A DNA stretch of 63,123 nucleotides, from IMG/VR virus record IMGVR_UViG_3300029928_000270. One strand, 5' to 3'. The translations under genes and the position numbers were made by a program. The stretch is from an uncultured virus (IMG/VR IMGVR_UViG_3300029928_000270) (Duplodnaviria; Heunggongvirae; Uroviricota; Caudoviricetes). Shown piece after piece: positions 6,800-62,133 of this stretch; positions within the stretch are counted from its first letter, which is position 1, and the number at the start of each line of letters is the position of its first letter. The notes beneath the pieces are model-generated. The model was not told where the DNA came from. It worked only from the letters and a program-made list of their open reading frames with translations, and searched no databases.

Positions 6800-7978
6800 G
6801 TGGGCGATAATAGTACGGCTTGCTTCTTCATATTGGAAGATTTGATAGAGTATAAGCTAAGATTTGCTAATGATAACTTTCTAAAACTCCTTGGGTATGA
6901 TGAAGTTGAGAAACTAACTGATTTACTTTCAGTCAAAGAAGAACGTGACTTGATAGAGGTGACAAGGCTTCATAGAAAGTCTTTTGACTTTAAGTGTGTT
7001 TTGATGGCTAACGGAAGGTACATAGGCGCAAAGCTAAAGTTCTCTCAAATTGGGACTTCCTACTATTGTTATGTAGAGGATTGTGAAAGTGATACAGATT
7101 ACATAAAGAGATTGGAGTTAGAGAACGATAGACTTTCTGCATTAGTTGAGTTGTCAGGAAGTATGTTAGCTGAATTCTCACCTAAAGGAGTTTTGTCTTT
7201 TGCTACGAGTAGTGTATTGTCGGAGTTTTCAGTAAATGTTTTCGAGAGGGGTATTACACATGCCCTTTTCGAAGGCTTTGTTTTCAGAAGTGATATTCGG
7301 AAGTTTATAAAGTTCTTAAGAGGAATAAGTAGTTGCAATGAGGAGTGTTTTTGTGAAGTGAGACTTAAAGTACGTGACATTTATAAGTGGTTTAATTTGA
7401 CAGCAAGGAGTATTTTGGACTCAAGAGAGAAGCTATCAAGAGTAATAGTTAAAGCAGAGGATATTGAGGTTTATAAATCACGTGAGAATGCTCTTAAGAT
7501 GAAGGTAGAAATAGATGATTTGACAAGGTGTTATAAAAAGTCATTCCTTGTTGATGAGTTAAGGGATGTTGATGTCAGGGGGTGCTTAGCATTCTTTGAT
7601 ATAGACAACTTCAAGGGTATTAACGATAGCTTTGGTCATCTTGAGGGTGATAATGCCTTGAAGGGAGTTGCAAACGTCTGTAAATCAGTATTTTGTGAAG
7701 ACGGTGATATTGTATGCAGATTTGGTGGAGATGAATTTTGCATCTATTCAAGATATTCTGACAAAGCAAGGTTCGAGCATAGCATTCAGTTGATGCAAAG
7801 TAAGGTACGAAAGATAAAGTTGTGTAACCAAAATCCTCTAAGTGTGTCAGTAGGTATTGTAGTTGCTTCACCTACATTGAATAGTATACAAGACCTTTTA
7901 GATACAGCTGATACGACTTTGTATATTGTAAAGGAAAATGGTAAAAATTCCTATAAGTTTTTTGACGACTTGAGGTAA
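6800..7978 (+). CDS. PAS-domain diguanylate cyclase (GGDEF)
   Basis: DIDNFKGINDSFGHLEGD, RFGGDEF, SVSVG, AD..LY..KENGKN. Confidence 0.92.
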   Translation: MGDNSTACFFILEDLIEYKLRFANDNFLKLLGYDEVEKLTDLLSVKEERDLIEVTRLHRKSFDFKCVLMANGRYIGAKLKFSQIGTSYYCYVEDCESDTDYIKRLELENDRLSALVELSGSMLAEFSPKGVLSFATSSVLSEFSVNVFERGITHALFEGFVFRSDIRKFIKFLRGISSCNEECFCEVRLKVRDIYKWFNLTARSILDSREKLSRVIVKAEDIEVYKSRENALKMKVEIDDLTRCYKKSFLVDELRDVDVRGCLAFFDIDNFKGINDSFGHLEGDNALKGVANVCKSVFCEDGDIVCRFGGDEFCIYSRYSDKARFEHSIQLMQSKVRKIKLCNQNPLSVSVGIVVASPTLNSIQDLLDTADTTLYIVKENGKNSYKFFDDLR

Positions 7979-8706: not shown

Positions 8707-9159
8707 ATGAAAATCTCAGAGGTAGTTGGTAGCTTTTCAAGTTCTGACGTTGAACAGCTTGTTTTAGAGGAAAAATTTGTAAATAAGGTGGGAGATATCA
8801 TTGGGGTATCTTTCAGTGTTGATGACGGAGAGGGACACAGATTTTGTTTTGCTCTCAGTAGAGAGATGTTTAATACTTCCAAGGTTTTTGGAAAAGCATT
8901 TGCTTCTGAGATTAAAAATAGCATTAAAGAAAGCAGAGTATCAGTTGCAAGAGATGATACTGATATTTGGTGTGCAAGGATTGAAGATTGCATCGAAAAG
9001 AGAGATAGCAATTTTGACTGGATGTTTGAGCGTGGCTTGGACAGAGAGTTGTACACCTTAATAAATGGTGGAAAGTACTCAAGAAATGATGTAATCGTCT
9101 TTGATGTGGTGCAGAATATGTTAGATGCTCTTGAGGTTTGCAGAGCCAAAAGAAGCTAA
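8707..9159 (+). CDS. hypothetical protein
   Basis: ATG after GGAGG, coupled to upstream stop. Confidence 0.55.
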   Translation: MKISEVVGSFSSSDVEQLVLEEKFVNKVGDIIGVSFSVDDGEGHRFCFALSREMFNTSKVFGKAFASEIKNSIKESRVSVARDDTDIWCARIEDCIEKRDSNFDWMFERGLDRELYTLINGGKYSRNDVIVFDVVQNMLDALEVCRAKRS

Positions 9160-9197
9160 GATAACCTTAGTGGGTATTTATAGAGGGGTGCATTAAG

Positions 9198-10373
9198 TTG
9201 CAGATAAGAGACGTTTTGTATGGAGATATGAGTTTCTCAGACGATGAAAGTAAGCTGATAAACTCATACTCCTTTAATAGACTTAGAAAAATAAAGCAGT
9301 TAGCCTTTGGTGAGTACATATTTCCGGGAGCAACTCATAATAGATACAGTCATTCGTTAGGAGTTGCAACTGTAATCTCACAGATGTTTGATTCTGTTGA
9401 TGCAAAGAATAAGGGGTATTTGACAGAGGAGGATAGAAATCTATTAAGGATGATGGGTTTAGTTCATGATATGGGGCATAGCCCCTACTCTCATAGTAGT
9501 ATGGCTTTAAGTGAGATTACTCACGAGGACAGGTTACCCGATATTCTCAATTTTGAGTCAAATAATGTGGTTTTGGATAACTCTTTTGGAGTTGACCCTA
9601 AAGATTTGATAACACAGACTTATCTTGGTGAGGGTGCTTTGTTTTACAGTAATGATAAGCTGATACTATTACATGAGTTTATGGACAGTTTTATTGATGC
9701 AGATAAGATGGATTATTTAAGGCGAGACTCTTATATGTGTGGTTTAAGTTATGGTAACTTTGAGTTCCATGACTTAATAAGGTCTTTGACCTTGATACCC
9801 AGTAAATCGGGTGTATACCACTTAGGTATTACTCCAGACGGCTTACATGCTTTGGAGAGTTTTGTTTTGGCAAGGTATTACATGTTCAGTAAGGTCTATT
9901 TAGACCCTATATCCTGCTTATATGATAAGTTATATTTGCAGGAAGTTCGTAGATATCTTCCAAACGGTTGTATGCCCGATGATATAAAGAAGTTCTTAAC
10001 TTGGGATGATACGAAGCTGATTGGTAAGTTGAGTTTCCTTGATGACACGGGATTTGAGTTAGTTTATGACCAAGATTTTGATGAAATTGCTATGCAGGTA
10101 ATCGATTCAAGACTCGGTGGGTATCTGCTTAAGGATATTGTTAAGAAAGCAGTTTACAGGAAGAATGAGAATGACTCTCAAATATATGTACGGGATGATG
10201 TGTTAGGTAGGGTTACCCCTGCAACAGAGTTATCTCCGTTACTTAAGCGTATGGAGTTTGAAAGGTTGCATAGACTTCGGTATTATGCTCCAAAGCCTAT
10301 TGCAGATGAGTTGAGAAATAAAATCAGGGTAGTTTTGGAAGGAGCGTTTAAGTATGCGAAATATGGAGTATGA
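9198..10373 (+). CDS. HD-domain phosphohydrolase (YwfO/SAMHD1-like dNTP triphosphohydrolase)
   Basis: RLRKIKQL, FPGATHNRYSHSLG, HDMGHSPYSH, DADKMDYLRRD. Confidence 0.9.
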   Translation: MQIRDVLYGDMSFSDDESKLINSYSFNRLRKIKQLAFGEYIFPGATHNRYSHSLGVATVISQMFDSVDAKNKGYLTEEDRNLLRMMGLVHDMGHSPYSHSSMALSEITHEDRLPDILNFESNNVVLDNSFGVDPKDLITQTYLGEGALFYSNDKLILLHEFMDSFIDADKMDYLRRDSYMCGLSYGNFEFHDLIRSLTLIPSKSGVYHLGITPDGLHALESFVLARYYMFSKVYLDPISCLYDKLYLQEVRRYLPNGCMPDDIKKFLTWDDTKLIGKLSFLDDTGFELVYDQDFDEIAMQVIDSRLGGYLLKDIVKKAVYRKNENDSQIYVRDDVLGRVTPATELSPLLKRMEFERLHRLRYYAPKPIADELRNKIRVVLEGAFKYAKYGV

Positions 10374-10899
10374 CAGAAGGGTATCCACTTATGTGTTTAC
10401 ATACGGTAAAAAGATAGACAGTGGCAGTTTGATGTGCTATTTATATTTCGCTCAGAAGGTTGGATTTGATTTAGGTTTCAACTTTAGAGCGTCATGTAGC
10501 GGTGTAACATCAAGAAAAGCAGAAGGGTATATCGGTGATTTACTTACCAATGATTTGCTTTGCTATGACAGCCAGTCATTGTCATATACGTATAACGTTA
10601 CAAGAGATAATGAAGTTCGTATCAAGTGCATTGATTTGGATGTGTTAGATGCAATAGTAACCTTAATGGGCGACCTTTCAGCGTGGGAGTTATCTTTTGT
10701 AGCCACTTTGGACATTTTGCAGGACGATGCTTATCACACGTTGAGTGGTCAGGCTTTTGACTATGAGGACGTGAAGAGTATGGTAGTCGCTTCTATGAAG
10801 CGTTTTTGTAATGGGTATACTAATGAGTTGTTCGAAGCAGCATCGGAACGACTTGTTCACTTGTATGAGTTAAAATCAAAATTCAATTTGGAGGTGTAG
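10354..10899 (+). CDS. YwgA-like winged-helix protein
   Basis: LYFAQKVGFDLGFNF...GVTS pattern; overlaps the HD gene as in the ywfO-ywgA pairing. Confidence 0.45.
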   Translation: MRNMEYDRRVSTYVFTYGKKIDSGSLMCYLYFAQKVGFDLGFNFRASCSGVTSRKAEGYIGDLLTNDLLCYDSQSLSYTYNVTRDNEVRIKCIDLDVLDAIVTLMGDLSAWELSFVATLDILQDDAYHTLSGQAFDYEDVKSMVVASMKRFCNGYTNELFEAASERLVHLYELKSKFNLEV

Positions 10900-10901
10900 G
10901 T

Positions 10902-11249
10902 ATGATTTTGTTAGCAGAGGGTAGTGGAGTTTATCCTGCAGATGAGGAAGAACGATTTAAGGAAGGTTCTAAGGAACTTAAGCTGAATGAAGGTAAAGTA
11001 TACATAAGAGAGGTTACACGACAGAACATGTTTGACTTAATTTCAGACCTTGCTATGTTGCACTCAGCCCAGCTCGAAGTATTGAAGGGTATTTATCAAA
11101 ATGAGATTCCTTTGAGCAGTGAAGACCTTAGAGGGTATTTAAATACTTTGCGTGATACAGGTGAGAAATGGCAGAGAGATATTGAGCAGTTGGAGAAGTC
11201 TTTCAGAGATGTGGTGAATTTTGGCACAGAAAGTGCTGAAAATAAATAA
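10902..11249 (+). CDS. hypothetical protein
   Basis: GGAGG RBS, operonic. Confidence 0.6.
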   Translation: MILLAEGSGVYPADEEERFKEGSKELKLNEGKVYIREVTRQNMFDLISDLAMLHSAQLEVLKGIYQNEIPLSSEDLRGYLNTLRDTGEKWQRDIEQLEKSFRDVVNFGTESAENK

Positions 11250-11262
11250 GGAGGATTTATAA

Positions 11263-11865
11263 GTGGAAGTTAGGTATTTTGACTATGCACGTAAGATGTG
11301 CGATGGTAAACCAGTAGTTGAAGGTGAAGGAGAAGGAAGAAAGGAAGTACGTGCTTATGTAGGTGCGCATCTACCGGAGTATCAAACAAGAAATTCAGCA
11401 GGTGCAGATTTTTGCAGTGCAGAAACAGTAACAATTCCCAGTGTTTGGAAAGCACTTAAGCGGATGTGTGAAGCAGGTGTTATGAATAAGGAGACCCTTA
11501 AGTCTTGTGTTGAGAACGAGGAAGTTCTCGGGGATTACTTCAAGCCAGTAAGAGTACATACGGGTATTAAGGCTTGTATGTGCGAAGATGAGGTTCTTGA
11601 ACTTTACAACAGAAGTTCAAATCCTATCAAGTTAGGATTGGTTCTTGCAAACAGTGTTGGGGTAGTTGATGCAGATTACTTTGAGAACAAAGACAATGAT
11701 GGCGAAATCAGTTTTGCTTTCTACAACTTCTCTTACGAGGATGTGACAATCCATGAAGGCGACCGTATTGGTCAGGGAGTTTTCAAGAAGTTTCTCAGAC
11801 CAACTACGAATATCCGTGTAAAGGATGAGGAGAGAGCAGGCGGATACGGTTCAACAGGCAGATAA
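11263..11865 (+). CDS. dut: trimeric dUTPase
   Basis: SAGADF, NRSS, GVVDADY, GDRIGQG, RAGGYGSTG. Confidence 0.93.
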   Translation: MEVRYFDYARKMCDGKPVVEGEGEGRKEVRAYVGAHLPEYQTRNSAGADFCSAETVTIPSVWKALKRMCEAGVMNKETLKSCVENEEVLGDYFKPVRVHTGIKACMCEDEVLELYNRSSNPIKLGLVLANSVGVVDADYFENKDNDGEISFAFYNFSYEDVTIHEGDRIGQGVFKKFLRPTTNIRVKDEERAGGYGSTGR

Positions 11866-11896
11866 GTAAGGTGTCACATTAAGTTGGAGGTTAGCT

Positions 11897-12937
11897 ATGT
11901 TAGTTAGGGAGTTTAAGGAGCAATATTCAGATATGTATCCCGAAGAATTTTTGGGATGCTTGCCCGAGACTTGTTTTAACCCAAGTTGCGGAAGTCCTAC
12001 CGAGATTTCCGCGGTTTTAACTGGTCTGCATTGCAGTAATCCAAGATGTCCCGACAAGATTGTCAAGAGAATAACTCATATCATGAGTGACTTGGGTGTA
12101 AAGGATTTTGGTGGCTCACGTGCGGCAGATTTTGTTGCATCGTATGGAGTTAGAAATCCTCTTGCAGTGTTTGCTTATGAACCGAGTGATGGAACCCTTG
12201 GTTCGGGTATTTCTATGGAGTTAAGCCAGAGAATATTTGACCAGATAAGCAAAAAGAAGAGTTTTGCACTTTGGGAGTATGTTCGTACAGCTCACTTGCC
12301 GTACATACAGAGTAGTGCCTTAACTCTCTTTGGTGGGTTTGATAACTTGGCAGATGCTTATGATAAAATCGAGTCAGGTGGTGTAGAGTACATCAGAGAA
12401 AAGTTGGGTATTCAGAAACAGGACAATAAGATGCCCGAAGATGCAGAGGTTTTGGAGGATGAGTATTCTGACCTTGAAGTAAGTATTCCATCCGTATCTG
12501 TGAGAGCGGTTAAGATTTTTGAAGTTTTGATGACTTTTAAGCAAGACCTCTTTGAGTACCTCGACTTTGTGACAATTATTCCGTTAAATTCGGATGATGT
12601 AGTCACTTTGAAGGCAGTTTGTTCTGAGGAGGTGGGTGCACCTTTCAGTACCAAGGCAGACTTCTATTCTACAGTTAATGGTTTGTACCCTAATCTACAT
12701 GTAGAGTTTCTTAAGACAGTAAATGCTTCAATTGATTATCTTGTTTGGGCGGGCGCAGATGGAAGTCCCGTGCGTGTGACAAATAAGGTAATGAAGGTGA
12801 GAGGGTACAATGAGAAGTATGAGGCACGAAAAGAAAGCGGCAGTCTTAAAGACGGTGACCATTATATTCCAATTGTAACAGCAATGGAGTTCTTGGGTAT
12901 TCTTGAAGGGAAGTCGAAAGGATTGAGTGCTGAATAA
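11897..12937 (+). CDS. NAD-dependent DNA ligase C-terminal-like protein (Zn finger-HhH-BRCT), no adenylation domain
   Basis: LPETC..PSCGS...LHCSNPRCP...ITH...LGVKDFG; C-term TVNASIDYLV..G...NKVMK BRCT-like. Confidence 0.7.
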   Translation: MLVREFKEQYSDMYPEEFLGCLPETCFNPSCGSPTEISAVLTGLHCSNPRCPDKIVKRITHIMSDLGVKDFGGSRAADFVASYGVRNPLAVFAYEPSDGTLGSGISMELSQRIFDQISKKKSFALWEYVRTAHLPYIQSSALTLFGGFDNLADAYDKIESGGVEYIREKLGIQKQDNKMPEDAEVLEDEYSDLEVSIPSVSVRAVKIFEVLMTFKQDLFEYLDFVTIIPLNSDDVVTLKAVCSEEVGAPFSTKADFYSTVNGLYPNLHVEFLKTVNASIDYLVWAGADGSPVRVTNKVMKVRGYNEKYEARKESGSLKDGDHYIPIVTAMEFLGILEGKSKGLSAE

Positions 12938-12950
12938 GTTTGTGAAATAC

Positions 12951-12991
12951 AGGGTTATTACTTATTAGTTGTAAGTAATAACCCTTATTTT
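12951..12991 (+). terminator. Intrinsic terminator
   Basis: AGGGTTATTACTTA/TAAGTAATAACCCT + TATTTT. Confidence 0.75.
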
Positions 12992-12994
12992 GTC

Positions 12995-13023
12995 TTGACT
13001 TTTAATAAGTTGTATGGTATAAT
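12995..13023 (+). promoter_or_regulatory. sigma-A-type promoter
   Basis: TTGACT-17-TATAAT, AGTTGTATGGTATAAT. Confidence 0.8.
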
Positions 13024-13054
13024 ACATACATAAACTGTAAAGGAGGTTTTATGT

Positions 13055-14002
13055 ATGAAAGTAGATTATAACGAGGTAGTTGGTGACTTTAATTCCGATT
13101 TAAGCGTTGATACGGAGAAGGTTTTCAGTAATAATATCTTAGTGCCGTCAACCATAAGTCTTAGAGGTAACGATTATGGAAGAGGAGTTGTACCTTTGAG
13201 CGCATCTGCACCATTGGATGTGATATTTTCCACTCCATATGTGATATATGAGATAACAGCGGAACTTGCTTGCAGAGTATGGGGTAGTTTCGAAGGTATT
13301 GAAGACCTCCATATCTTTATGTATTTTAATGCTTCGGAGGACGAACTTGTAATTCTCAGAGCCGAGGGGGATGAGTTACGTGTAGGTGGTTTTGCTTGTG
13401 GTGTGAGAGTTGATAAGAGTACCTTGGAGTTCTACGGCACTGGCGAGGAGGAATATATTGACGGAAGTCGTGTGTTTGTAGACCCGACAGTTGGGGGTGT
13501 TGTGTTATGGCATTCCATCATGTCTGTGTTCGGTTCAGATGATTCAGAGTTCAATCTTGGAAATCTATTTTACTGGGTAGATTATGTAAACTCAAGGAAG
13601 TCTGGCTTCACAGTAACTCAGGAGGAGTTTGACAATTTAATGGACTCCAAGATTGAGTTTATTGAACGTAACGGGGTTAAGAGACAGGTCAGAGAGTTAC
13701 TCATTGATGAAGAAGATGTTGAGTACCTGTCAGAGTTGTGTGAGCACGATAACGGGTATATGCCCGATGGCACTTGTCTTGCCTTATCAAAGTTTGATAT
13801 GCCCTATTACACTCTCAGACTGGATGGTTTTGAAGTTCCTATTATCCGATTTGGTGCAACTTTTGATGCATCGATGTTTGAGGATGCTGAGTCTGAAGAC
13901 TATGTTGATTTTGGAGAGTTGGATATATTTGATGAAGATGCAGAGCCTTTAGACAAAGATGATGACGATGACTGGTGTGATTGCGGAAACGACAGTCTGT
14001 AA
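13055..14002 (+). CDS. acidic hypothetical protein
   Basis: 315 aa, own promoter, RBS and terminator. Confidence 0.7.
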   Translation: MKVDYNEVVGDFNSDLSVDTEKVFSNNILVPSTISLRGNDYGRGVVPLSASAPLDVIFSTPYVIYEITAELACRVWGSFEGIEDLHIFMYFNASEDELVILRAEGDELRVGGFACGVRVDKSTLEFYGTGEEEYIDGSRVFVDPTVGGVVLWHSIMSVFGSDDSEFNLGNLFYWVDYVNSRKSGFTVTQEEFDNLMDSKIEFIERNGVKRQVRELLIDEEDVEYLSELCEHDNGYMPDGTCLALSKFDMPYYTLRLDGFEVPIIRFGATFDASMFEDAESEDYVDFGELDIFDEDAEPLDKDDDDDWCDCGNDSL

Positions 14003-14015
14003 CCAGTAGTGACAG

Positions 14016-14047
14016 ATAGCGGATACTAAGTTGTATCCGCTATTTTT
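14016..14047 (+). terminator. Intrinsic terminator
   Basis: ATAGCGGATAC/GTATCCGCTAT + TTTT. Confidence 0.75.
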
Positions 14048-14079
14048 ATGTAGACGTTTTTATTTTGGGTGAGGCTATA

Positions 14080-14108
14080 TTGACTACTGTAAAGTTGTAT
14101 GGTAAAAT
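14080..14108 (+). promoter_or_regulatory. sigma-A-type promoter
   Basis: TTGACT-17-TAAAAT, AGTTGTATGG. Confidence 0.7.
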
Positions 14109-14255
14109 ATACCTAAATTAGTTGTAGTGTGATTATTTTTATGAAATGTAGTGCTAAGTGTGCTTCAGAGTATGAAATTTTTGAGTTTCTTAGACGTTAA
14201 GGATTTAGCTAAGTTGCTCTATACTACACATCAAATTTTTGTCGGAGGTTTTGAG

Positions 14256-28219: not shown

Positions 28220-28357
28220 ATGCCCATTTTTATTTGTTGTGAGTTAATATCTCCTTGTAATATGTTGTCATTTTGATATATTGCAATATGGTTGTAATTA
28301 CAGAAATAAATTTTATTTGTTTTGGGGAAATTATGCAGTTTGGAGGTCTTGAAAGCT

Positions 28358-31300
28358 ATGGTAGATTGTTGTGATTTATATGCTATGCTAATGAGTGCTA
28401 ACAGAAGAAACATAAAAAACGTGGGGATTTATTGCTTTGTAAAAGGAGAGATTTCAAGACCCACTGCTTTAAGTAAAGCTGTTTCTTTGCAGGAAGGTGG
28501 AAAGTTTGTAGAAGCTGAAATCTTTGCAGTAGACTTAAAGAGCATAAAGGCAGAATTAGTTAGTAGTGGTCTGATTGGGGAGTCAGACCGTTTCTTGGTT
28601 AATGCTTCTGCATCAGTATATGTAGACAGGTCTTTAATTGAGAATGATTGGTACTTTTTCCGAGGTACACTGATGATGAGTTCGACATCAAGCCGAATTC
28701 CATTAGTTACTTTAATGAATTCAAGACGTGTAGGCACCTCTTGGGTATTGAGTAAAATTTCAGCTTCAGATTTTGAAGTAACTCACTTCTACGGCACAAG
28801 ACGACAGGCTTCTGTCCTTGAGGAGTCCATAAATCGTGGTATGATTGTGCATCCTGCTGATGTAAATATGTTTACACGTTTATATGCAGAATTACCTGAT
28901 AGTTTTGTGGCAAGTAATGCCCCTATTTTGAATATGCCCAAAGCAGAACCGCCAAAAGTAGAGGTAATTAAGCCATCTGAACCTGCAGTTGCTGCAAGTG
29001 TGGAGTATACTGTTGTAGCAGGTGCAGAGACCCCTGCTTCAGGTATTAAGGTTCAGCATAATTGCAAAGAGAGTCGTACAAAAATAAAGGATAAGCCTGC
29101 AATTTTCAATGATATGAAAGATTGGCTGAAAGATGCAGCAGAAACTCAGGATAATTACATAAGCACTCTCAAGGAAGGGTATGAAGTAACTGATGAACAT
29201 GTTGAAGTTGCAAGATTGTTAAATCATGTATTAGCTAACTGGAAAACTCGTGTAGGTAATGCGATAACTGGTCGTATGTTGATAAAGTCTTACATGGAGA
29301 AATCAGGTGAGGACTTGGAACAGGATTATATGGGTGAGTCTTTATTAGATTATATCTTAGATATTAAGGACGAAGTATTTGACTTCTGTTTAGGCGCAGA
29401 CCATGTAACTGCCGAGGGTGAGGCATTATCAATCATTAAGAACTTGTTTGGTTCGCCAGAGATTGTATATGCAGGTATAGTTAGCATATTCTTCGGTTTT
29501 GGGTATGATACTGCAGTTGATATGGCAAAAAGTATGTCATCTCACGGCATTTCATTCTCAAGGGTATTTGAAAACAACCCATATTTGTTCACAATCTGTG
29601 GGTATGACATGAAGTTTGCAGTTACAGAAAATATAGCCTATGCAATGGGTGTTTGGAGCAAGAGAGATATTCAGAAGAGCAGAAACATTGCAATTGTTTC
29701 AGACTATATGTTATATAGTGATACGCAGGATACGAACTATACCGTAGAAAGCATCAGAGAAGCAACTCTTGGTGTAAGAGCGACAAAAGCAGTATTAGAC
29801 AGACTTCGTAATGGACAGAGTATCCTGCCAGTTAGTTGCCAGCGAAGTGTAAATGCTTACTTTCCTGAGAAACGTCAATCCCCTTACCCGACATACGGTT
29901 GGGAGTATAAAGATGGTGCGTACTTCTTAGCATTGGGTACTACGGAAGTAGGACAGGCTATAAACGATGCAGTAAGTGTGGGTATGATTATAAGAAAGAA
30001 AGTCTGTGGGGTAGACATGTTGCTTTGCACCACATTCCTTAAAATGGAGTTATTTGTACTGGATAAGTGCTATAAGTTAGCAAAAAGACCTTGCAGGTAT
30101 AATGACTTAAACAGAATAAATGCATTAATTGATGCGTATGAAAATATGAAAGGCTTTAAGTTAGAACAGGCTCAGCGTCAGGGTGTTCTTACCAGTGTTA
30201 CAAATAATATAAGTGCGATAAGTGGACCTGCTGGTAGTGGTAAAACAACCACGTCAGATTGCTTGGTTTATGTGTACACTCATTACTTTGACTTAGAGGA
30301 TGACGAAGATAATGAGGAAGACGGTGAGGATGAGGAGAGTTTTAACGAAGATGATATTCAGTATGCGGCACCAACTGGCAAGGCGGCTAAGCGTTTACAG
30401 GAAGTTGTAGGTAGACCAGTTAGTACCATGCATAGCAAATTCAAGGTGGGTATTGGTGAAAAAACAGTTCTTGACGGTGAGGATAATGATTTTGTAACAG
30501 AGGGTGGTGCAAGGGTATACATCTTTGACGAGGTTGCAATGTGTACCTTGAAACTGTTGTATACTGTTTTAAGTCGTACTTCAAATGCAACAATAGTTCT
30601 GTTGGGGGACATATGCCAGCTTTCTCCGATAGGTAAAGGTTTACCTTTCAGAGATTTGTTAAAGTTCATACCTTGTACTTTCCTTTTAGTTTCTAAGAGA
30701 AGTCTTGAAGGTAGTGGTCTTACTTTGAACAGTACAATAATAAATGATTACAGTGAGCCAAACAACTTTAAGTTTCTTGAGAATAGTGATGACTTTAAGT
30801 TAATTCCATGCGCAGATGATGATATTGCAAATAAGATATATGCAGTATGTGGATATCATTTAGGCAAAATAACAAAGAACCAAGCCGAGGGTATTTGCCA
30901 TTGTGATATGATAGATATTGACCGCATACACGGAATTAAGCCCGATGACATTCAGGTTGTAATGCCAGTTAGTACAGACAGATATTCATGGGGTGCAAGT
31001 GTTGTAAATGCAAGACTTCAGGATTTGTTTAACCCTAAAACTTTAGGTGTTCGGGAGTTTAAGATACAGAATTTTAACAAGGAAAAGGTTTTCCGTGTAG
31101 GTGACCGTGTAATTCATACAAACAGTAATATGTACACGATGCAGTGGTATTCCAGCTTCAGTGACAAAGCGTTCACTAAGGCATGGGGTTCGGGTATTAT
31201 GAATGGTGATGTTGGTAAGATTGTAGACATTATAGAAGCTAAGAAGCGTTTACGTTTCTTAGACCCGGTTGACCCAATGCCAGAAGGGTATGAGGAGCCT

Positions 31301-31732
31301 AAGCATACAATAAGAAAGGACAAATCTTGGCGAGGAGAAGACCACTATTTTGTAGTTGTGGAGTATTATGATTACGGTAGTGGGAAAAACTATTATATTC
31401 TGTACCAAGCAGCAGTTGATGGGTATGCAAAGGGTGATGGCTTATACCTTGTAGGCGAAGATTTGTCTTTCTTAGATTTGTCGTATGCTTTGACAACTCA
31501 CAAGATGCAGGGTAGTCAGGGTAAGTTGATTGTATATGGTTTAGGCAAGGTTAGACGACAGGGTTTTGTTACAAGAAATGCGGTTTACACTGGCGAAACA
31601 AGAGCAAGTTGCGGAGAGTATATGATTGGTAGCGTAGAGGATGTAATGACCAGCCAGTTGAACATGGCAAGACAGATTGTTGAGCAGGAAGGTGTTAATA
31701 CCATATTAGGTGATATTTGGAATTTGCAGTAA
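28358..31732 (+). CDS. RecD2-like SF1B helicase with long N-terminal region
   Basis: GPAGSGKTT, AAPTGKAAKRL, IFDE, GDICQLSPIGKG, NGDVG, YALTTHKMQGSQ, YTGETRA. Confidence 0.9.
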   Translation: MVDCCDLYAMLMSANRRNIKNVGIYCFVKGEISRPTALSKAVSLQEGGKFVEAEIFAVDLKSIKAELVSSGLIGESDRFLVNASASVYVDRSLIENDWYFFRGTLMMSSTSSRIPLVTLMNSRRVGTSWVLSKISASDFEVTHFYGTRRQASVLEESINRGMIVHPADVNMFTRLYAELPDSFVASNAPILNMPKAEPPKVEVIKPSEPAVAASVEYTVVAGAETPASGIKVQHNCKESRTKIKDKPAIFNDMKDWLKDAAETQDNYISTLKEGYEVTDEHVEVARLLNHVLANWKTRVGNAITGRMLIKSYMEKSGEDLEQDYMGESLLDYILDIKDEVFDFCLGADHVTAEGEALSIIKNLFGSPEIVYAGIVSIFFGFGYDTAVDMAKSMSSHGISFSRVFENNPYLFTICGYDMKFAVTENIAYAMGVWSKRDIQKSRNIAIVSDYMLYSDTQDTNYTVESIREATLGVRATKAVLDRLRNGQSILPVSCQRSVNAYFPEKRQSPYPTYGWEYKDGAYFLALGTTEVGQAINDAVSVGMIIRKKVCGVDMLLCTTFLKMELFVLDKCYKLAKRPCRYNDLNRINALIDAYENMKGFKLEQAQRQGVLTSVTNNISAISGPAGSGKTTTSDCLVYVYTHYFDLEDDEDNEEDGEDEESFNEDDIQYAAPTGKAAKRLQEVVGRPVSTMHSKFKVGIGEKTVLDGEDNDFVTEGGARVYIFDEVAMCTLKLLYTVLSRTSNATIVLLGDICQLSPIGKGLPFRDLLKFIPCTFLLVSKRSLEGSGLTLNSTIINDYSEPNNFKFLENSDDFKLIPCADDDIANKIYAVCGYHLGKITKNQAEGICHCDMIDIDRIHGIKPDDIQVVMPVSTDRYSWGASVVNARLQDLFNPKTLGVREFKIQNFNKEKVFRVGDRVIHTNSNMYTMQWYSSFSDKAFTKAWGSGIMNGDVGKIVDIIEAKKRLRFLDPVDPMPEGYEEPKHTIRKDKSWRGEDHYFVVVEYYDYGSGKNYYILYQAAVDGYAKGDGLYLVGEDLSFLDLSYALTTHKMQGSQGKLIVYGLGKVRRQGFVTRNAVYTGETRASCGEYMIGSVEDVMTSQLNMARQIVEQEGVNTILGDIWNLQ

Positions 31733-31803: not shown

Positions 31804-31832
31804 TTGACTTTTGTGTAGTTTCATGGTATAAT
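31804..31832 (+). promoter_or_regulatory. sigma-A-type promoter of the Tas-like gene
   Basis: TTGACT-17-TATAAT with TG. Confidence 0.8.
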
Positions 31833-31905
31833 TATTTCATAATAAATCGTTGGGGGCGGACAAGCTCCCAGTGATAAAAACAATAGAATATGGAGGTAGT
31901 TAACT

Positions 31906-33177
31906 ATGGTAGTTAATGAAGTAACTGGCAAGACAAGTGCAGTTGACGATGTAGTAAAGACTCAGATAAGAAATCTCATCGGAACACTGTATGGGATTCA
32001 GGAAGTTCGTATTGGAACGGGTAACCGCTTAACGGCTCAGTTCAGACAGACCTTGGGTATTGCACCCTCTGCAAAGGCTGAGGATGCGGATAAGGAAGTG
32101 GCTAAGATTTTAGCTACTCTCAAAGAGGATTACAACCGTATCACGGACGGTATTGCCGAGAACAACTATTCACTGAAGAAGCAGATTTCCTTATTGCTGA
32201 AAGATGATAAAACTCCCCTTAAGGCGGTTAGGGACACCACGGATTACAGTTTAATCCGTTCCTATATGTTTCTTTTGGACTCCGAGGCGGAACTTACTAA
32301 GGTTCTTGATACATATGTAAAGAGTCATCCGTTGTGGGATGCGTTCTTTGAGCAGGTTAAGGGTTGTGGCACTTTGATGAGTGCGGTATGTATCGGTTAC
32401 TTAGACCCTTACAAGGCACCTCATGTATCCAGCTTCTTCCGTTATGCAGGTCTTGATGTCGTTCAGGATACTGACAAGAGTGGAGAGCAGTTGTGGTTGG
32501 CAATCCATGATGGGTATCGTGTTGTAAGACAGAGATACACATACATCTACAAGTCCACAAAGGAAGATTACATCGGACGTGTAATCGAGAGCAAGGATGA
32601 GGATGGTATCCCCATCTATACCACGGAGACAGGTGAGTACCTTGAGAAAATCGAAGCCATTTCCAAAGAAGGTGACTACATCTTCGAAGACTTAAACGGT
32701 CAGAACCCTTACGTCGGAGCAGTTATTGCCAAGGAACACGGAAGAAGCATGGGTGACACGGAGATGTTCGAGTACACCAGCAAGGATGGCGAACTGAAGC
32801 TCAAGAGAGGTCTTACATACAACCCGACCCTCAAGAGCAAGTTAATGGGGGTACTGGCAAGTTGCCTTATCAAGGCTAAAGACCCGATTTACTACTCGAT
32901 TTATACAGAGTACAAGAACAGACTGAACAATAGCCCTCGGTATGACAAGTATACCAACGCCAGAAAGAATAACATGGCTGTAAGGTACATGATTAAGCAG
33001 TTTCTGAGAAACCTTTGGGTTGTTTGGAGAGACCTTGAAGGGCTTCCTGTAGATGCTCCTTATGAAGTTGATAAGTTGGGCAGAGAACCTCATCATGTAA
33101 ATGCTTACCAGTACTGTGTGGCTACGGGTACTAAGAAGTCTTACAAGGACTACTGTAACAACTTCAACGAAATCTAA
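31906..33177 (+). CDS. Nop/IS110-related RNA-binding protein; TIGR-associated Tas-like protein without RuvC/HNH (TasA-like)
   Basis: Coiled coil (IQEVRIGTGNRL), VKGCGTLMSA HhH, SSFFRYAGL, YNPTLKSKL, ARKNNMAVRYMIKQFL; no N-terminal DEDD; adjacent dual-spacer array. Confidence 0.8.
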   Translation: MVVNEVTGKTSAVDDVVKTQIRNLIGTLYGIQEVRIGTGNRLTAQFRQTLGIAPSAKAEDADKEVAKILATLKEDYNRITDGIAENNYSLKKQISLLLKDDKTPLKAVRDTTDYSLIRSYMFLLDSEAELTKVLDTYVKSHPLWDAFFEQVKGCGTLMSAVCIGYLDPYKAPHVSSFFRYAGLDVVQDTDKSGEQLWLAIHDGYRVVRQRYTYIYKSTKEDYIGRVIESKDEDGIPIYTTETGEYLEKIEAISKEGDYIFEDLNGQNPYVGAVIAKEHGRSMGDTEMFEYTSKDGELKLKRGLTYNPTLKSKLMGVLASCLIKAKDPIYYSIYTEYKNRLNNSPRYDKYTNARKNNMAVRYMIKQFLRNLWVVWRDLEGLPVDAPYEVDKLGREPHHVNAYQYCVATGTKKSYKDYCNNFNEI

Positions 33178-33183
33178 GAAATA

Positions 33184-33218
33184 AACTGGAGTGGGTATTT
33201 ACTCACTCCAGTTCTTTT
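33184..33218. terminator. Hairpin between tas-like gene and array, possibly a bidirectional terminator
   Basis: AACTGGAGTGGGTA-TT-TACTCACTCCAGTT; CTTTT follows on +, TATTTCTT follows on -. Confidence 0.7.
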
Positions 33219-33231
33219 AACAAAACACCGA

Positions 33232-35172
33232 AGTTATTTCATGACCGTATAGTGTATCAGGCTTATAAAGTAGTTTCAAACAAAGGGAGTGTATCTTATA
33301 ACAAAAGTAATTACGTAGTGAAAAAGTGTATCGTATTAAGGTAGTATATCAGAAGTAACAAGTTGTTGCATTGTACATGAGTGTATCCTTTGGAAAGAGT
33401 AGTTTCATGCGGTAAAAGTGTATCATTTGGAAAAAAGTAGTTTCTTGCGGTGTAAGCGAGCATACTTAGGTTTGCAAATTTTGGGTATTAAGTTTTAGTG
33501 TATCATAACATAATAGCTATTGCTTACAAAGAAAGTGTATCGAGGCATACAAGTATTTTCATTGAGATTTAGTGTATCGGAGGTTTTGAGTTGTTTCTAT
33601 GTCATAAAGTGTATCAAGACGAGTTAGTATTTTCGTTAGTATTAAGTGAGTCAAGAAGTAAAATTATTTTCATAGTTCAATAGCGTATCATAGGAGGAAG
33701 TTATTTAAAGTTAGAACAGTGCATCAAGACAATTTAGTTATTTCATTTGTATTAAGTGTATCGTATAATTTAAGCAGTTTCAAGTTATAATAGTGAGTCA
33801 GGTCAAGCAAGTATTTTCAAATGGACAGTAGCGTATCAGATATGAGAAGTTTTCTCATTAGAGTTAAGTGTATCGTATTATAAAGTTTATTTCATAACAA
33901 GTAAGTGTATCAGTATGCAAAAGTTATATCATACCAAACAAGTGTATCAGCAAGAAAATTTTGTTTCATGATGATGAAGTGTATCTTCTCTGACCAGTTA
34001 TTGCATTTATGGAAAGTGTGTCGATTCATGTAATCAGAACAAGGGTATTTAGCGTATCAGTAAGTAATAGTTTTTTGCATAGAGGGAAAGTGTATCATTT
34101 CAAGATAGTTATTTCATGGTTAAAAAGTGTACCAAGGTAAAGAAAGTTTATCACATTAAATGGTGTAGTGTATCAAGGCATCGAAGTTATTTCAGCAAGG
34201 AAATCAAGTGTATCATTAATTTCAAGTAATTTCATAGATTATTAGTGAGTCTGCTGTCAAAGCGGTTACATAGGTGTCGAACGTATCGTATATGGAAATT
34301 GTTTTCAGTGTAGTTGAGTGTATCGAAGTAATAAAGCTATTTCGTATAAGTTCAGTGTATCACATGGAAAGAGTAGTTTCACTCGAAGCGAGTGTATCAA
34401 GGGTTTGAAGTAATTACAAATATGTTGAGTGTATCAAAAGGTTCAAGTGGTTGCATATCAACCCAGTGTATCAAAAATTATAAGTAGTTTCAAAAAATTT
34501 CAAGTGTATCAGGACTTGTGATAGTGAGTCGTTTAGAAAGAGTGTATCGGTATTATAAAGTGATTTCAATCGTTAAAGTGTGTCGGTTTACTTAGTGAGT
34601 CATAACATGTAAGCGTATCAAGACAATACAGTTGTATCGTTTGGTTTTAGTGTGTCATCTTTAACCAGTACTTTCATGGAAATCCAGCGTATCAGTATAT
34701 TAAATTTATTGCACATGCAGTTAGTGTATCAGATTATGGAAGTCATATCATCGTACTCAAGTGTATCAATATTTTAGAGTCATAGCAAAAATAGGTAGTG
34801 TATCATAGTATTATAGTTATCTCAAAAATCATCAGTGTATCAAAAGGAGGTATTGGTTTCAAATCAGATTAAGTGTATCAGTATGGAATAGTTATCTCTC
34901 AGTTGTTAAGTGCATCATAATAATTAAGTTATTTCATTTATGGTTAGTGTATCAAAGTGTAAAAGTTTTCACAATAAAGAAGAGTGTATCAATTCTGTTG
35001 AGTAGGTTATTGCATTTGAGTGTATCACGTTGGACGAGTAATTTCTATTAAATGCAAGTGTATCAAAGTTGATGATTAGTTCATATGCATTTAGTGTATC
35101 CGAAGTTGAGAGTAGTTTCAAATTTCACCAGTGTATCATGAGTATAGATTGTTTTCATGAGTAGTGAGTGTC
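33232..35172. ncRNA. TIGR-like tandem interspaced guide RNA array, about 50 units of 37 nt
   Basis: AGTGTATC(A)-N9-AGTWRTTTC(A)-N9 periodicity with unique spacers; AGTGTATC at 33251, 33288, 33325 ... 35093, 35130; no ORF. Confidence 0.88.
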
Positions 35173-35213
35173 AAGAAGTTGGGTAGTGTTTAAGGCACTA
35201 CCTAATTTCTTGA
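35171..35213. terminator. Hairpin closing the array
   Basis: TCAAGAAGTTGGGTAGTG...CACTACCTAATTTCTTGA. Confidence 0.6.
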
Positions 35214-35506: not shown

Positions 35507-35535
35507 TTGACATTCGTTCGAGTTAGTGCTATAAT
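35507..35535 (+). promoter_or_regulatory. sigma-A consensus promoter
   Basis: TTGACA-17-TATAAT with TG. Confidence 0.85.
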
Positions 35536-35563: not shown

Positions 35564-36697
35564 ATGAACTGTTTACGAGTAGTTAAAGAGATATCTGAAG
35601 ATAGACTTTTAGTTTACTGCAATTCATGCAAAAGTTATTTTGCAATGGACAAATACGAGTATAACCGCAATTTACAGGGCGGAGATATACGCAGTTGTAA
35701 ATTCTGTTGCAGAACAAGTTTTGGTGATTATGTTCCTTATTATCATCAAAGATATGGAACTCTGCGTATACTTGCAAAACTATGGGCAGAGTACTCTTGC
35801 TACTTTGTATGTAAATGTGATTGTGGTACATATCTTACAGTAGAAAGTTCTTATCTCACAAGTGGGTATGCATTTTCTTGTGGTTGCTTCAAGAGAAGAC
35901 GTCTTATACCTGAGTTTACAGACAAATCAGAGTATGTTTTAACTTCTGAGGATGTAAAGAGTATGGATAGATTGGTGTGCAGTCTGCCCAGAACTTTGAA
36001 GCCAAAGACAAAGGTATATAAGTTAGCTGATAATGAAACTAAACCCGAGATAACTCTTAAGAGTTTAGTGACACAGTATTCTGTTGAGGGCAATGAAGCT
36101 GAGGGTAGTGTTGCTTCTGCGGAAGTGCAGGAAGAGTCAAGCATGGGTATTGATACTTTCGAGTCGGTCAAGATACATGATATTGAGGAAGAAGTAGTGG
36201 ATGTGGGTATCAAGGAAGAGCCTGAGTTACCTTGGGATGAGCCTAAGAAGCTAACTGTTGAGGAAGTCAAGCCAGTTATGGTTGAAGAAAGCCATAAGTG
36301 TGATGAAGTTGTGGAAGAGTCGAGTGAGATGCAGACTGAGGGTACCATAGGTAATACCACTTTCAATTTTTCAGTTACTACAAACAGTCTTTATGAGAAG
36401 AAGCGTGTAGAAATCAGAGGTAATTTTACGAATGTAGATAAGGTAATAAGAGAAGCAGGTTTTGTAACAAGCAAAGAATGTGACATTTCCAGGGTAGCAG
36501 TTTTCATGAATTGCTTTGAGTCAGATTTAGATAAGATGTTAAGTCTGCATTATACTGGAAAGGGAGATTACTTTGTAAGGTTAGATGAAAACAAAAGAAT
36601 TTCAGACATATGTATGTTTGAAGATGATTGTTTGACTGTATTTCGCAGTTCACAATCCGATGGGTATTTAAGGTTAATAGGAGGTTTATTATGTTAG
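35564..36697 (+). CDS. Zn-binding protein with homing-endonuclease-associated CxCDCG domain
   Basis: CNSC...CKFC; YGTLRIL...VCKCDCG...LTSG...SCGC; acidic linker. Confidence 0.6.
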   Translation: MNCLRVVKEISEDRLLVYCNSCKSYFAMDKYEYNRNLQGGDIRSCKFCCRTSFGDYVPYYHQRYGTLRILAKLWAEYSCYFVCKCDCGTYLTVESSYLTSGYAFSCGCFKRRRLIPEFTDKSEYVLTSEDVKSMDRLVCSLPRTLKPKTKVYKLADNETKPEITLKSLVTQYSVEGNEAEGSVASAEVQEESSMGIDTFESVKIHDIEEEVVDVGIKEEPELPWDEPKKLTVEEVKPVMVEESHKCDEVVEESSEMQTEGTIGNTTFNFSVTTNSLYEKKRVEIRGNFTNVDKVIREAGFVTSKECDISRVAVFMNCFESDLDKMLSLHYTGKGDYFVRLDENKRISDICMFEDDCLTVFRSSQSDGYLRLIGGLLC

Positions 36698-38302: not shown

Positions 38303-39415
38303 ATGTTAAAGAGACCGGCACCGAAAACGTTACCCAAAGAAGAGGTAGAACAGATTGTCAAGTCAGGACAGGAACTTGTGGCTCAGACAGGCATCATTAA
38401 GTCTTATGATGAGTCTTTCCCCGTGTTCGATATTCCTGCAGGAAACAAGGTACTTGTATATGTGCCTAACCACACCGTTATGACGGCAGAAGGTGTTTCC
38501 AGTATCAGATGTGACCGTTTCCTTGCACATCCTTGCAGAAACGGCAAGCAGTTTGAAACAGTAAGATGTTCAAACGGCACAGTTTCCCCTACACTCCACT
38601 TAGATGGCACTTGCCCTCTTTGCAACAGTGTAGAAAAGTGTTGGGAGTTATACAATGCTCAGTATGCTGACATGTGTCGTGCTAAGGGTATTGATGCTTC
38701 CACCGAAGACGGCTACAAAGCAGCTCAGCCTATCCGTGATGAACTTCGTAGCAAGTTCGCAGTTGGCAAGTCTGAGATGTGGCTGACTTTCCCTATCGTA
38801 GTTATCGAGTGCGAAGAGCGTGACGGTATCGGCACAGGTATCGCAAAGAAAGATGCGAACGGTCGCATCAATGGTAAGGTGTACTTCTACAGCATCAGAG
38901 AGTCTACCTACACCGATAAGTGGGTTAAACCTCTTGACAGTTTGTCCGTAGATTCCGTGATTACCCATCCTGCAGGTACATGGGCAACTCTGAACTATCA
39001 GGTAACTGATAATACAGGTAAAGTTGTTCAGAACCCGAAAGCAAGAGATGCGGCTAAGTCGCTGACAGTTTCCTACAAGCAGATGCCCCCCGAATACAAT
39101 CAGTGGGCAGAGTACTTTGACAAACTGACCGAAGAGTGGACTCCTGAGAAAGCTATGGAAGTTCTCGTTGCTAACCAGCTGAGAAGCATGGACGAAATGG
39201 TAGAAGCAAACGACATCCTCATGAAGAAAACTAATGAGATGCTTGCTCTTATGAGTTCTGCCAACGCTAACAAGATGTTAGCTCCCTCTCAGGTAGCTGG
39301 GGCAATCGAAGGTGGCGCACAGAGCGCAGAAGAAGCCTTATCCAGTTTCGGAGTAGCTCCTGCAACCGCACCGAATGTTGGTGCAGATGCTCCGACAGGA
39401 GTACCTATCAACTAA
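38303..39415 (+). CDS. gp32-like single-stranded DNA-binding protein (tentative)
   Basis: H..C / C...CPLC Zn ligands, low-complexity tail, position between primase and Rad50/Mre11. Confidence 0.55.
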   Translation: MLKRPAPKTLPKEEVEQIVKSGQELVAQTGIIKSYDESFPVFDIPAGNKVLVYVPNHTVMTAEGVSSIRCDRFLAHPCRNGKQFETVRCSNGTVSPTLHLDGTCPLCNSVEKCWELYNAQYADMCRAKGIDASTEDGYKAAQPIRDELRSKFAVGKSEMWLTFPIVVIECEERDGIGTGIAKKDANGRINGKVYFYSIRESTYTDKWVKPLDSLSVDSVITHPAGTWATLNYQVTDNTGKVVQNPKARDAAKSLTVSYKQMPPEYNQWAEYFDKLTEEWTPEKAMEVLVANQLRSMDEMVEANDILMKKTNEMLALMSSANANKMLAPSQVAGAIEGGAQSAEEALSSFGVAPATAPNVGADAPTGVPIN

Positions 39416-53864: not shown

Positions 53865-54296
53865 ATGAAGAAAATCAATGGTGTTGACTGGGATGAGAAG
53901 GGTCTTGTGATGACGAAGAACAATATCGGTAATGTGTTCCTCTTAGGAGCAGCAAATTACCCGAATGCAAGTGGGGAAATGATTACAGTTTTCTTCACTT
54001 CTGAGAGAGCGTTTTTCTTCGTTGACGAGCAGGGTAACTGGAGCATGAAAGAACTCAGAGATGAGTACGTAGCTAAGGACAGCGCACTGAGATACGGTGA
54101 TTTTCCTATCGATTTCGATGGCTACCGTGAAATCTGCGTAGCTTCCAACGATGACGGCGAAGACTTCGTAGGTGACGTAAACATGGACATGCTTTCCACT
54201 TTCGGCATCGGTACTGCCGAAGTTGCAGAGGATATTCAGAAGCGTCTGGAGAGTCTTGCAAAATTTCGTGTTGAAGTTGATATGCTGAAGCAGTGA
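53865..54296 (+). CDS. hypothetical protein
   Basis: AAGGAGG RBS; C-ending codon bias. Confidence 0.7.
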   Translation: MKKINGVDWDEKGLVMTKNNIGNVFLLGAANYPNASGEMITVFFTSERAFFFVDEQGNWSMKELRDEYVAKDSALRYGDFPIDFDGYREICVASNDDGEDFVGDVNMDMLSTFGIGTAEVAEDIQKRLESLAKFRVEVDMLKQ

Positions 54297-62029: not shown

Positions 62030-62133
62030 TATACTAACGGAAACATGAGGTTGTGAGAATTTTACGAGAATTACCTCTCAAAGTAAAGTTCTCATGACCT
62101 TTGTTTCATTTCCTTTGGAAATGGAGTGATTAT

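Follow-up and report, generated by a model that had tools for sequence, protein, structure and literature searches.

A stretch of 63,123 nucleotides (nt) of DNA from an uncultured phage (IMG/VR record IMGVR_UViG_3300029928_000270), hereafter the window, carries a gene for a Nop-domain protein, tasA, with a long array of short repeats of the TIGR type directly downstream of it and a helicase gene upstream, only 173 nt separating the latter from the tasA open reading frame (ORF). The layout of the locus is given in Table 1. Considered as a whole, that is, jointly for the identity of the protein, the nature of the array and a guided, non-cutting block as the mode of action, the interpretation that we regard as probable is that tasA encodes TasA, the nuclease-free effector of a phage-borne, dual-repeat TIGR-Tas system. 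The wedge element of the protein is greatly enlarged by an insertion that had been noticed in an earlier note on this DNA.

Table 1. Features of the tasA locus and its flanks (positions in the window; aa, amino acids)
Feature	Position	Strand	Description
Promoter-like site	31804..31832	+	TTGACT-17 nt-TATAAT with TG extension; 11/12 consensus matches; 74 nt upstream of the tasA start
Shine-Dalgarno-like site	31893..31897	+	GGAGG, 8 nt ahead of the ATG
tasA	31906..33177	+	ORF, 423 aa, ATG start; probable nuclease-free TIGR-associated Nop-domain protein
Coiled-coil helices, aa 20-137	31963..32316	+	Predicted symmetric dimer interface at residues 20-45 and 112-137
Whole wedge region, aa 185-303	32458..32814	+	Predicted all-beta; alignment to 9MTY; counterpart of the TaTasR wedge G210-K230
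Clade-specific acidic beta-hairpin module, aa 197-273	32494..32724	+	77 aa, net charge -6; from column occupancy, charge and profile
C-terminal loop with Y386 and H396	33061..33093	+	Candidate tigRNA-processing dyad; conservation and SpTasH alignment
Strong hairpin followed by UUCUUUU	33179..33225	+	Between the tasA stop codon and the array; -21.1 kcal/mol, z -5.9; 0/200 shuffles fold as well
Dual-repeat TIGR array	33214..35174	+	About 50 units, 37-nt period: edge AGTGTATC, spacer A of about 10 nt, loop AGTWRTTTCA, spacer B of about 9 nt
Terminator-like hairpin closing the array	35171..35213	+	20 pairs; -30.1 kcal/mol, z -7.8

When the TasA protein was scanned against Pfam, no nuclease family (HNH or RuvC) was found, and the single match, to Transposase_20 (residues 148-188; E = 0.094), stayed at 13.5 bits below the cut-off of 21.3. 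Among the PHROGs, the protein matches phrog_4285, labelled 'transposase' (E = 3e-29), its residues 18 to 394 being spread over profile positions 24 to 266, so that it must hold about 130 residues more than the profile. A structure model built on an alignment of 150 sequences (alignment A1) reached a pLDDT of 90.3 and a pTM of 0.85, as against a pLDDT of only 35.8 for the single-sequence model. With the whole model as the query, a search that is dominated by the Nop core, the top ten Foldseek matches in the PDB were all TasH or TasR chains (E = 1.7e-7 to 3.2e-5), while the sequence search of the PDB returned TaTasR (9MTY; E = 6.5e-10) and TasH (E = 0.004); by both searches, the Nop-domain fold of the solved Tas proteins is present. 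The archaeal Nop5 and eukaryotic Nop56/58 proteins of the box C/D ribonucleoproteins are a distant match; TasA is without their fibrillarin-binding domain, and its guides would target DNA rather than rRNA.

The alignment-based model is helical from residue 6 onward, and its structural alignment to TasR starts at residue 15, which corresponds to chain residue 111, past the RuvC domain of TasR; the alignment to TasH likewise starts at residue 16 (chain residue 66). It is on the helical start and the position of these alignments that the absence of a nuclease domain is based, in agreement with the statement of the earlier note that the protein begins at the coiled coil. Combined with the Tas Nop fold, this absence makes the protein a TasA, the class defined by Faure et al. 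2025 (PMC12045711) as solo Nop-domain proteins without a nuclease. The lack of a nuclease had been taken for unusual; the lack itself is real, but there is nothing odd about it, as it is the defining state of TasA. The solved relatives differ in this respect, since TaTasR (9MTY) and SpTasH (9W04, 21KL) carry an N-terminal RuvC or HNH domain, cut DNA and have a short wedge loop (21 residues in TaTasR).

The transposase labels raise another reading, namely that the protein is a bridge recombinase of the IS110 type or the remnant of one, and that the adjacent repeats are unrelated to it. In addition to the weak Transposase_20 match and the PHROG label, a S192-G193 pair lies in the loop that follows the helix-hairpin-helix region, recalling S241-G242 of IS621 (PMC11208158); the earlier note had stated that this loop carries the catalytic serine in IS110 recombinases, which agrees with the position of S241 in the Tnp-domain loop as described in that paper. 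The data contradict such a reading. There is no RuvC DEDD domain, column 192 holds an aspartate in 58% of 93 long-wedge relatives, which leaves no conserved serine nucleophile, the Transposase_20 score is below the cut-off as stated above, Tas structures are matched far better than IS110 structures, and the adjacent array has the TIGR layout. Compared with IS110/IS621 as described, TasA lacks the RuvC domain, the conserved serine and a bridge RNA, and has the loop expanded into a folded module. We regard this reading as extremely improbable.

In two-copy predictions, TasA gave an ipSAE of 0.60, as compared with 0.00 for the best of 3 controls, with contacts agreeing by at least 58% between runs and a partner pLDDT of at least 81. 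Of 30 proteins whose solved structures are pairs of one chain, 20 attain this mark, as does 1 of the 23 whose structures show a single chain. TasA is accordingly predicted to form a coiled-coil homodimer, although the pass may merely reflect its likeness to the solved Tas dimers. Towards the C terminus, Y386 and H396 are each at least 90% conserved in alignment A1, and Y386 is aligned to Y289 of SpTasH, a processing residue; a Y/H processing dyad on a C-terminal loop has been described for SpTasH (PMC13421893).

According to Faure et al. (PMC12045711), a dual-repeat TIGR array is laid out in units of about 36 nt, in which an edge repeat and a loop repeat, each of 8-12 nt, alternate and two short spacers are held; such arrays end in a truncated repeat and a rho-independent terminator. 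The array downstream of tasA shows this alternation with two short spacers, 43 of its units parse cleanly, and it is closed by a terminator hairpin. The loop motif is enriched (68 matches vs 35 expected, 26 of the 68 within the array). Some irregularities were seen: at 33325-33360 an edge is followed by a second edge-like repeat 18 nt on, a repeat-free break of 51 nt interrupts the array at 33446-33496, and a degenerate stretch of about 80 nt lies at 34244-34316.

Degenerate and irregular units of this kind, the 51-nt break, the edge-edge spacings and the absence of a target match in the window would fit a decaying relic without present function. We consider decay very unlikely, given that the ORF is intact, that many full-length homologs are conserved, including the residues of both the core and the module, and that the gene shows the strongest third-position codon bias in the window together with promoter-like and ribosome-binding signals.

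TIGR-like arrays are common beside related genes. By a crude periodicity test, arrays of about 36 nt were found next to tas in 117 of 160 related loci. In three of the closest loci (L081, L082 and L085), tas has an array upstream or downstream of it that shares the AGTGTATC edge and repeats with a period of 35-37 nt. In L085 (positions 9116-14226), a relative 43% identical to TasA precedes some 5 kb of DNA without ORFs, filled with 35-37-nt units that bear the same TGTATCA edge; judged by this length, the array would exceed 100 units by far.

The main structural peculiarity of TasA lies in the middle of the protein. The earlier note had placed an insertion of about 115 residues between the motifs RYAGLDVV and YNPTLK, which proved accurate: RYAGLDVV occupies residues 179-186 and YNPTLK residues 305-310, the span of nt 32464-32817 is correct, and all six of the (D/S/T)xxG motifs reported there were found, namely DKSGE (190), DEDGI (231), TETGE (240), SKEGD (253), DLNGQ (262) and SKDGE (292). 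Structure prediction, proposed in that note as a check, placed about 13 beta strands in residues 185-303 (pLDDT 86-95) in the alignment-based model, with each of the six motifs at a turn between predicted strands, so that the beta-hairpin character of the segment also holds. In the alignment to TaTasR (9MTY), residues 117-185 of TasA correspond to residues 144-213, and residues 298-392 to residues 220-311; TasA therefore has 112 extra residues between the two blocks. In TaTasR, the wedge is G210-K230 (21 residues; Methods of Xu et al. 2026, bioRxiv 10.64898/2026.09.09.750476), and in the TasR structure the wedge loop keeps the non-complementary DNA strand apart from its partner (PMC12045711). 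As the gap in the 9MTY alignment falls within G210-K230, we identify the insertion as an expansion of the wedge.

Column occupancy in alignment A1 divides the expanded wedge into two parts. The hairpin arms (residues 185-196 and 274-303) are common to short-wedge relatives, while the 77 residues in between, 197-273, are specific to the long group, with an occupancy of 0-6% in 34 short-wedge relatives and of 47-100%, mostly 90-100%, in 93 long-wedge ones. The net charge of this module is negative in each of the 91 members of A1 that have an insert of at least 60 residues (mean -8.4, range -14 to -1; -6 in TasA), whereas the remainder of the protein averages +7. Nine of its residues (G219, Y222, G224, G234, G243, E261, Y269, G271 and V273) are 82-88% conserved in the long-wedge members. 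No known family could be assigned: for residues 185-304 alone, the sole Pfam match was Peptidase_C13 (E = 0.16), the best PDB sequence match was a designed helical protein (E = 0.0011), which we take as compositional, and no match was obtained among the Atlas clusters, feature scores being at most 0.82. Intragenic tigRNA units of the BlTasA kind were also looked for and rejected, as the tasA coding sequence holds only 3 weak loop-like motifs, below background density, and no embedded array units were found within the wedge module.

The distribution of the module was followed in two sets of homologs. A word-index search gave 564 homologs, of which the 120 listed were 48-93% identical to TasA, with at least 91% query coverage and lengths of 360-461 aa. 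An exhaustive search of 50%-identity representatives gave 2061 matches at E of at most 0.001; most of the best 150 of these align in two stretches, skipping residues 195-276 or so. For the 148 representatives with both anchors, the segment equivalent to residues 186-298 measured (i) 10-39 residues in 104, (ii) 40-99 residues in 24 and (iii) at least 100 residues in 20. A profile of the module, made from 74 close homologs, matches 130 of 270 collected proteins, and only 10 representative clusters, all of the clade of TasA, while 26 representatives with a wedge of at least 60 residues escape it. The insertion is thus, as far as these alignments go, a clade-wide feature that is not peculiar to this gene; it was found neither in all homologs nor as part of a known domain, so that this objection, which the earlier note had raised against its own reading, does not apply.

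For the tree, 100 rows of A1 were chosen out of the 270 collected proteins, and FastTree was run on their core only, with the wedge columns removed and midpoint rooting for drawing only. The supported set that contains TasA (SH-like support 98) comprises 34 rows, with 30 long, 3 mid and 1 short wedge, and the long wedges outside this set need at least 3 changes on well-supported branches. On the strength of this core tree and of the 26 long-wedge representatives missed by the profile, the module is a feature of the clade, and the wedge tip is a site at which different modules arose, other clades carrying unrelated ones there. N-terminal extensions of more than 40 aa were present in 18 of 105 short-wedge, 1 of 23 mid-wedge and none of 23 long-wedge rows, counts that refer to mutually related rows; no recognisable nuclease family was found in the 11 longest extensions scanned.

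With the single TasA protein as the query, no close relative was detected in IMG/VR, and with the alignment as the query, the best full-length match was 33% identical. Among cultured phages, a relative was found only in Ralstonia phage phiRSL1 (34% identity, 71% coverage) and Microcystis phage Mvi-JY20. Two of the collected Tas relatives have an unusual architecture. The 487-aa protein P0183 ends in an RNA polymerase alpha-CTD domain (PF03118, aa 398-457, E = 1.5e-14), a natural fusion which, judged from its domain composition, hints at a direct link between nuclease-free Tas and transcription. The 672-aa protein P0269 has an intein (Hint, Intein_splicing and LAGLIDADG_3; aa about 155-534) at or near the wedge, which gives it an apparent 'wedge' of 390 residues.

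Among described systems, the closest in kind is the TasA of dual-repeat TIGR-Tas systems, for example FpTasA of Flavonifractor plautii, which in the account of PMC12045711 is likewise a phage-borne solo Nop-domain protein with a coiled coil, no nuclease, an edge/loop array with two short spacers, and a terminator. The likeness is one of description, the length of the wedge having been measured relative to TaTasR (112 residues longer in TasA), and the 37-nt unit sets the present system apart from described dual-repeat TasA systems, for which 36 nt is given. MbTasA and the dead-RuvC proteins PateTasR and CsTasR are nuclease-inactive like TasA and are presented by Xu et al. 2026 (bioRxiv 10.64898/2026.09.09.750476) as RNA-guided transcriptional repressors; in that description, PateTasR and CsTasR bind a stem-loop and are without the Y/H loop, unlike TasA with its candidate pair Y386 and H396. 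In the same preprint, the wedge is listed as one variable segment of the Nop core, and the core of dual-repeat Tas proteins is said to stay compact and to vary minimally. Judged by the sequence alignments, the dual-repeat clade of TasA, with a wedge longer by 112 residues, departs from this statement. TasA as a class has been known since 2025, and the absence of a nuclease and a likely role as a repressor are already published; as for the acidic beta module of the wedge, full-text searches of the TIGR-Tas literature gave no description, although the figures and supplements of the preprint or TIGRSafari may already catalogue the clade.

In relatives, arrays are reported to be cut into single tigRNAs; the target of about 18 bp is unwound and bent, with one strand paired to spacer A and the opposite one to spacer B (PMC12045711). 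MbTasA, from a member of the Minisyncoccota, binds its target DNA and represses a reporter without cleavage, and the dead-RuvC TasRs are described as doing likewise, the repression of transcription being reversible in both cases (bioRxiv 10.64898/2026.09.09.750476). By analogy, the array transcript would be cut into single dual-spacer tigRNAs, and a TasA dimer with one tigRNA would open a target of about 18 bp, spacers A and B each pairing with a different strand. The protein would then stay on the uncut target and block transcription (or replication) of host or rival-element DNA, so that the phage would use the gene as an RNA-guided, non-cutting DNA binder. The earlier note had taken the protein for a Tas protein without a nuclease, which is supported, and had put forward a block of transcription by such a binder, which would agree with what is reported for MbTasA and with what is proposed in PMC12045711; this part of its proposal is therefore not new. 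The recruitment of the neighbouring RecD2 helicase, which it also suggested, found no support, as set out below.

Several points weigh against this interpretation: (i) the array unit of 37 nt deviates from the 36 nt described for dual-repeat systems; (ii) the hairpin and U-run between tasA and the array, which is absent from the list returned by the terminator scan, leave co-transcription of the two unassured, and the promoter scan gave no separate promoter for the array; (iii) no spacer match with 0-1 mismatches was obtained for the 43 spacer pairs, searched in four geometries on both strands of the 63-kb window; (iv) in the sole alignment to SpTasH, the histidine of the putative dyad is shifted by 3 residues, H296 of SpTasH being aligned to R393, ahead of H396; (v) MbTasA is a different TasA, from a lineage of the insertion-rich Candidate Phyla Radiation, and its properties are transferred to the dual-repeat phage clade by homology only; and (vi) the acidity of the module speaks against the simplest idea of its role, that of added DNA contacts. 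Self-targeting within the window was rejected on the same spacer data, since there were no matches with 0-1 mismatches, and those with 2 mismatches (three) or 3 mismatches equalled the shuffled-spacer controls.

In the proposed TasA complex, the enlarged wedge would be a strand-separating beta hairpin with a rigid, acidic beta-meander module of 77 residues at its tip, which is where the nuclease domains of TasH and TasR are docked. Given its acidity, the module is more likely to face a protein, or to repel the displaced strand, than to hold on to duplex DNA. We favour, in this order, a structural cap, the docking of a partner and an autoinhibitory gate. That the module serves as a steric or structural cap, enlarging and stabilising the roadblock, has about an even chance of being correct.

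Docking would mean that TasA finds the site and that a recruited protein, be it a helicase, RNA polymerase, a trans-acting nuclease or a partition protein, does the work there; we hold this to be rather unlikely. The acidity of the module in all 91 carriers, next to an otherwise basic protein, is more in keeping with a contact to protein than with one to DNA, the HNH domain of SpTasH is reported to dock on a surface made up of the wedge loop and a beta hairpin (PMC13421893), TasA-ParB operons have been described (PMC12045711), and the alpha-CTD fusion of P0183 indicates that links of Tas to other machinery occur. The neighbourhood of the gene argues the other way, as it holds no conserved partner. 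The helicase of the window yielded only 3 weak tblastn matches (22% identity, 2-3 kb away) in the 160 tas loci, and none in the five closest (L081-L085), among whose 21 neighbouring proteins there was neither a helicase family nor any recurrent family shared between the loci; the downstream ORF 35564-36697 had no counterpart in any of the 160 loci. A broader form of the same thought, to which we give a similarly small chance, is that the module would be the effector end of the clade, a surface for docking or DNA mimicry by which a protein of the host or the phage (RNA polymerase, helicase, nucleoid protein or trans-acting nuclease) is recruited to the guided site or trapped there, and that the wedge tip, where other clades carry unrelated modules, would therefore be a swappable effector socket.

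Less likely still is a built-in gate or DNA mimic, in which the acidic surface would lie in the DNA-binding groove as long as the complex is free and give way only to a fully matched target, thereby raising the specificity for a target of 18-19 nt. A conserved negative charge beside a positively charged, nucleic-acid-binding core would fit a gate, as would the position of the module on an element that must move between the DNA strands, and in SpTasH the wedge loops are described as closing the groove in a mismatch-sensitive manner (PMC13421893). The gate is, however, something we infer, short-wedge relatives evidently work without one, and the model sets the module confidently in one position (pTM 0.85).

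The module bears on the wider use of these proteins. TIGR-Tas proteins are under development as very small programmable DNA binders that are free of a protospacer adjacent motif, and the majority of them are free of a nuclease. The present analysis indicates that the strand-separating wedge tolerates a rigid module of 77 residues, which the whole dual-repeat clade keeps acidic, and that unrelated modules occupy this point in other clades; the wedge tip is thus a natural insertion site for engineering fusions. Should the module recruit a partner, it would show how nuclease-free Tas proteins act beyond plain roadblocking; should it be merely structural, it would be a catalogue entry.

The codon usage of tasA sets it apart from the other genes of the window. 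Its G+C content at third codon positions (GC3) of 0.512 ranks first among 56 ORFs (mean 0.388, standard deviation 0.05) and its C/(C+T) ratio of 0.452 ranks second, while its G+C contents at first and second positions are ordinary. Of its 141 two-fold NNY codons, 78 end in C, while the count for the remaining 55 ORFs is 1945 of 5439 (Fisher P = 3e-6). Since GC3 is extreme and the first two positions are not, the bias would fit selection on synonymous sites better than a foreign composition; a level of expression is what we infer from it. The earlier note had likened the C-ending codons to those of an SSB gene, and the bias itself is confirmed; no SSB family, on the other hand, was matched among the scanned ORFs of the window with at least 100 aa. 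Only two other ORFs, 53865-54296 and 38303-39415, show a similar C-ending bias. Neither has a family in Pfam or PHROGs, nor has 38303-39415 among the PDB sequences, and either of them may be the gene that was meant.

The promoter-like site ahead of tasA is so called by consensus match only. Two motifs resembling the loop repeat, each with 1 mismatch, lie at 31814 and 31830 (31814-31839), within and just after the spacer between the -35 and -10 elements of this site. About 0.1 such matches are expected in that stretch, which is not significant window-wide, some 40 being present elsewhere in the window, and the two motifs are probably there by chance.

The helicase gene upstream of tasA (28322-31732) encodes a RecD-like superfamily 1 protein of 1136 aa with AAA_30, SH3_13 and UvrD_C_2 domains. 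Its first 570 residues or so match no family, and a highly acidic stretch (aa about 655-680) lies in the AAA_30 ATPase region, just after the P-loop. On the other side of the array, a perfect sigma-70 consensus promoter (12/12, with TG; 35507-35535) stands ahead of the 377-aa ORF 35564-36697, whose N-terminal part, rich in Cys, has a weak match to a PHROG with the label HNH endonuclease (E = 1.6e-5) and which has no Pfam match.

Nearly all long ORFs of the window lie on the plus strand, and the GC skew is positive throughout. The replication module includes a family A DNA polymerase, a thymidylate synthase, a dUTPase, a primase and helicases, the polymerase being at most 29% identical to that of any phage compared. 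The ORF 6800-7978 encodes a protein with a GGDEF diguanylate cyclase domain (E = 3e-27), a sequence match which suggests that the phage may manipulate the cyclic di-GMP signalling of its host. At the far end, the ORF 62101-63123, which runs off the window, combines an SH3_3 domain with PF07737, the family of the N/C-terminal domain of anthrax lethal factor (E = 3e-9), and weakly matches a PHROG labelled 'amidase, lysis'; judged by these domains, its product is probably a cell-wall-binding lysis or peptidase protein.

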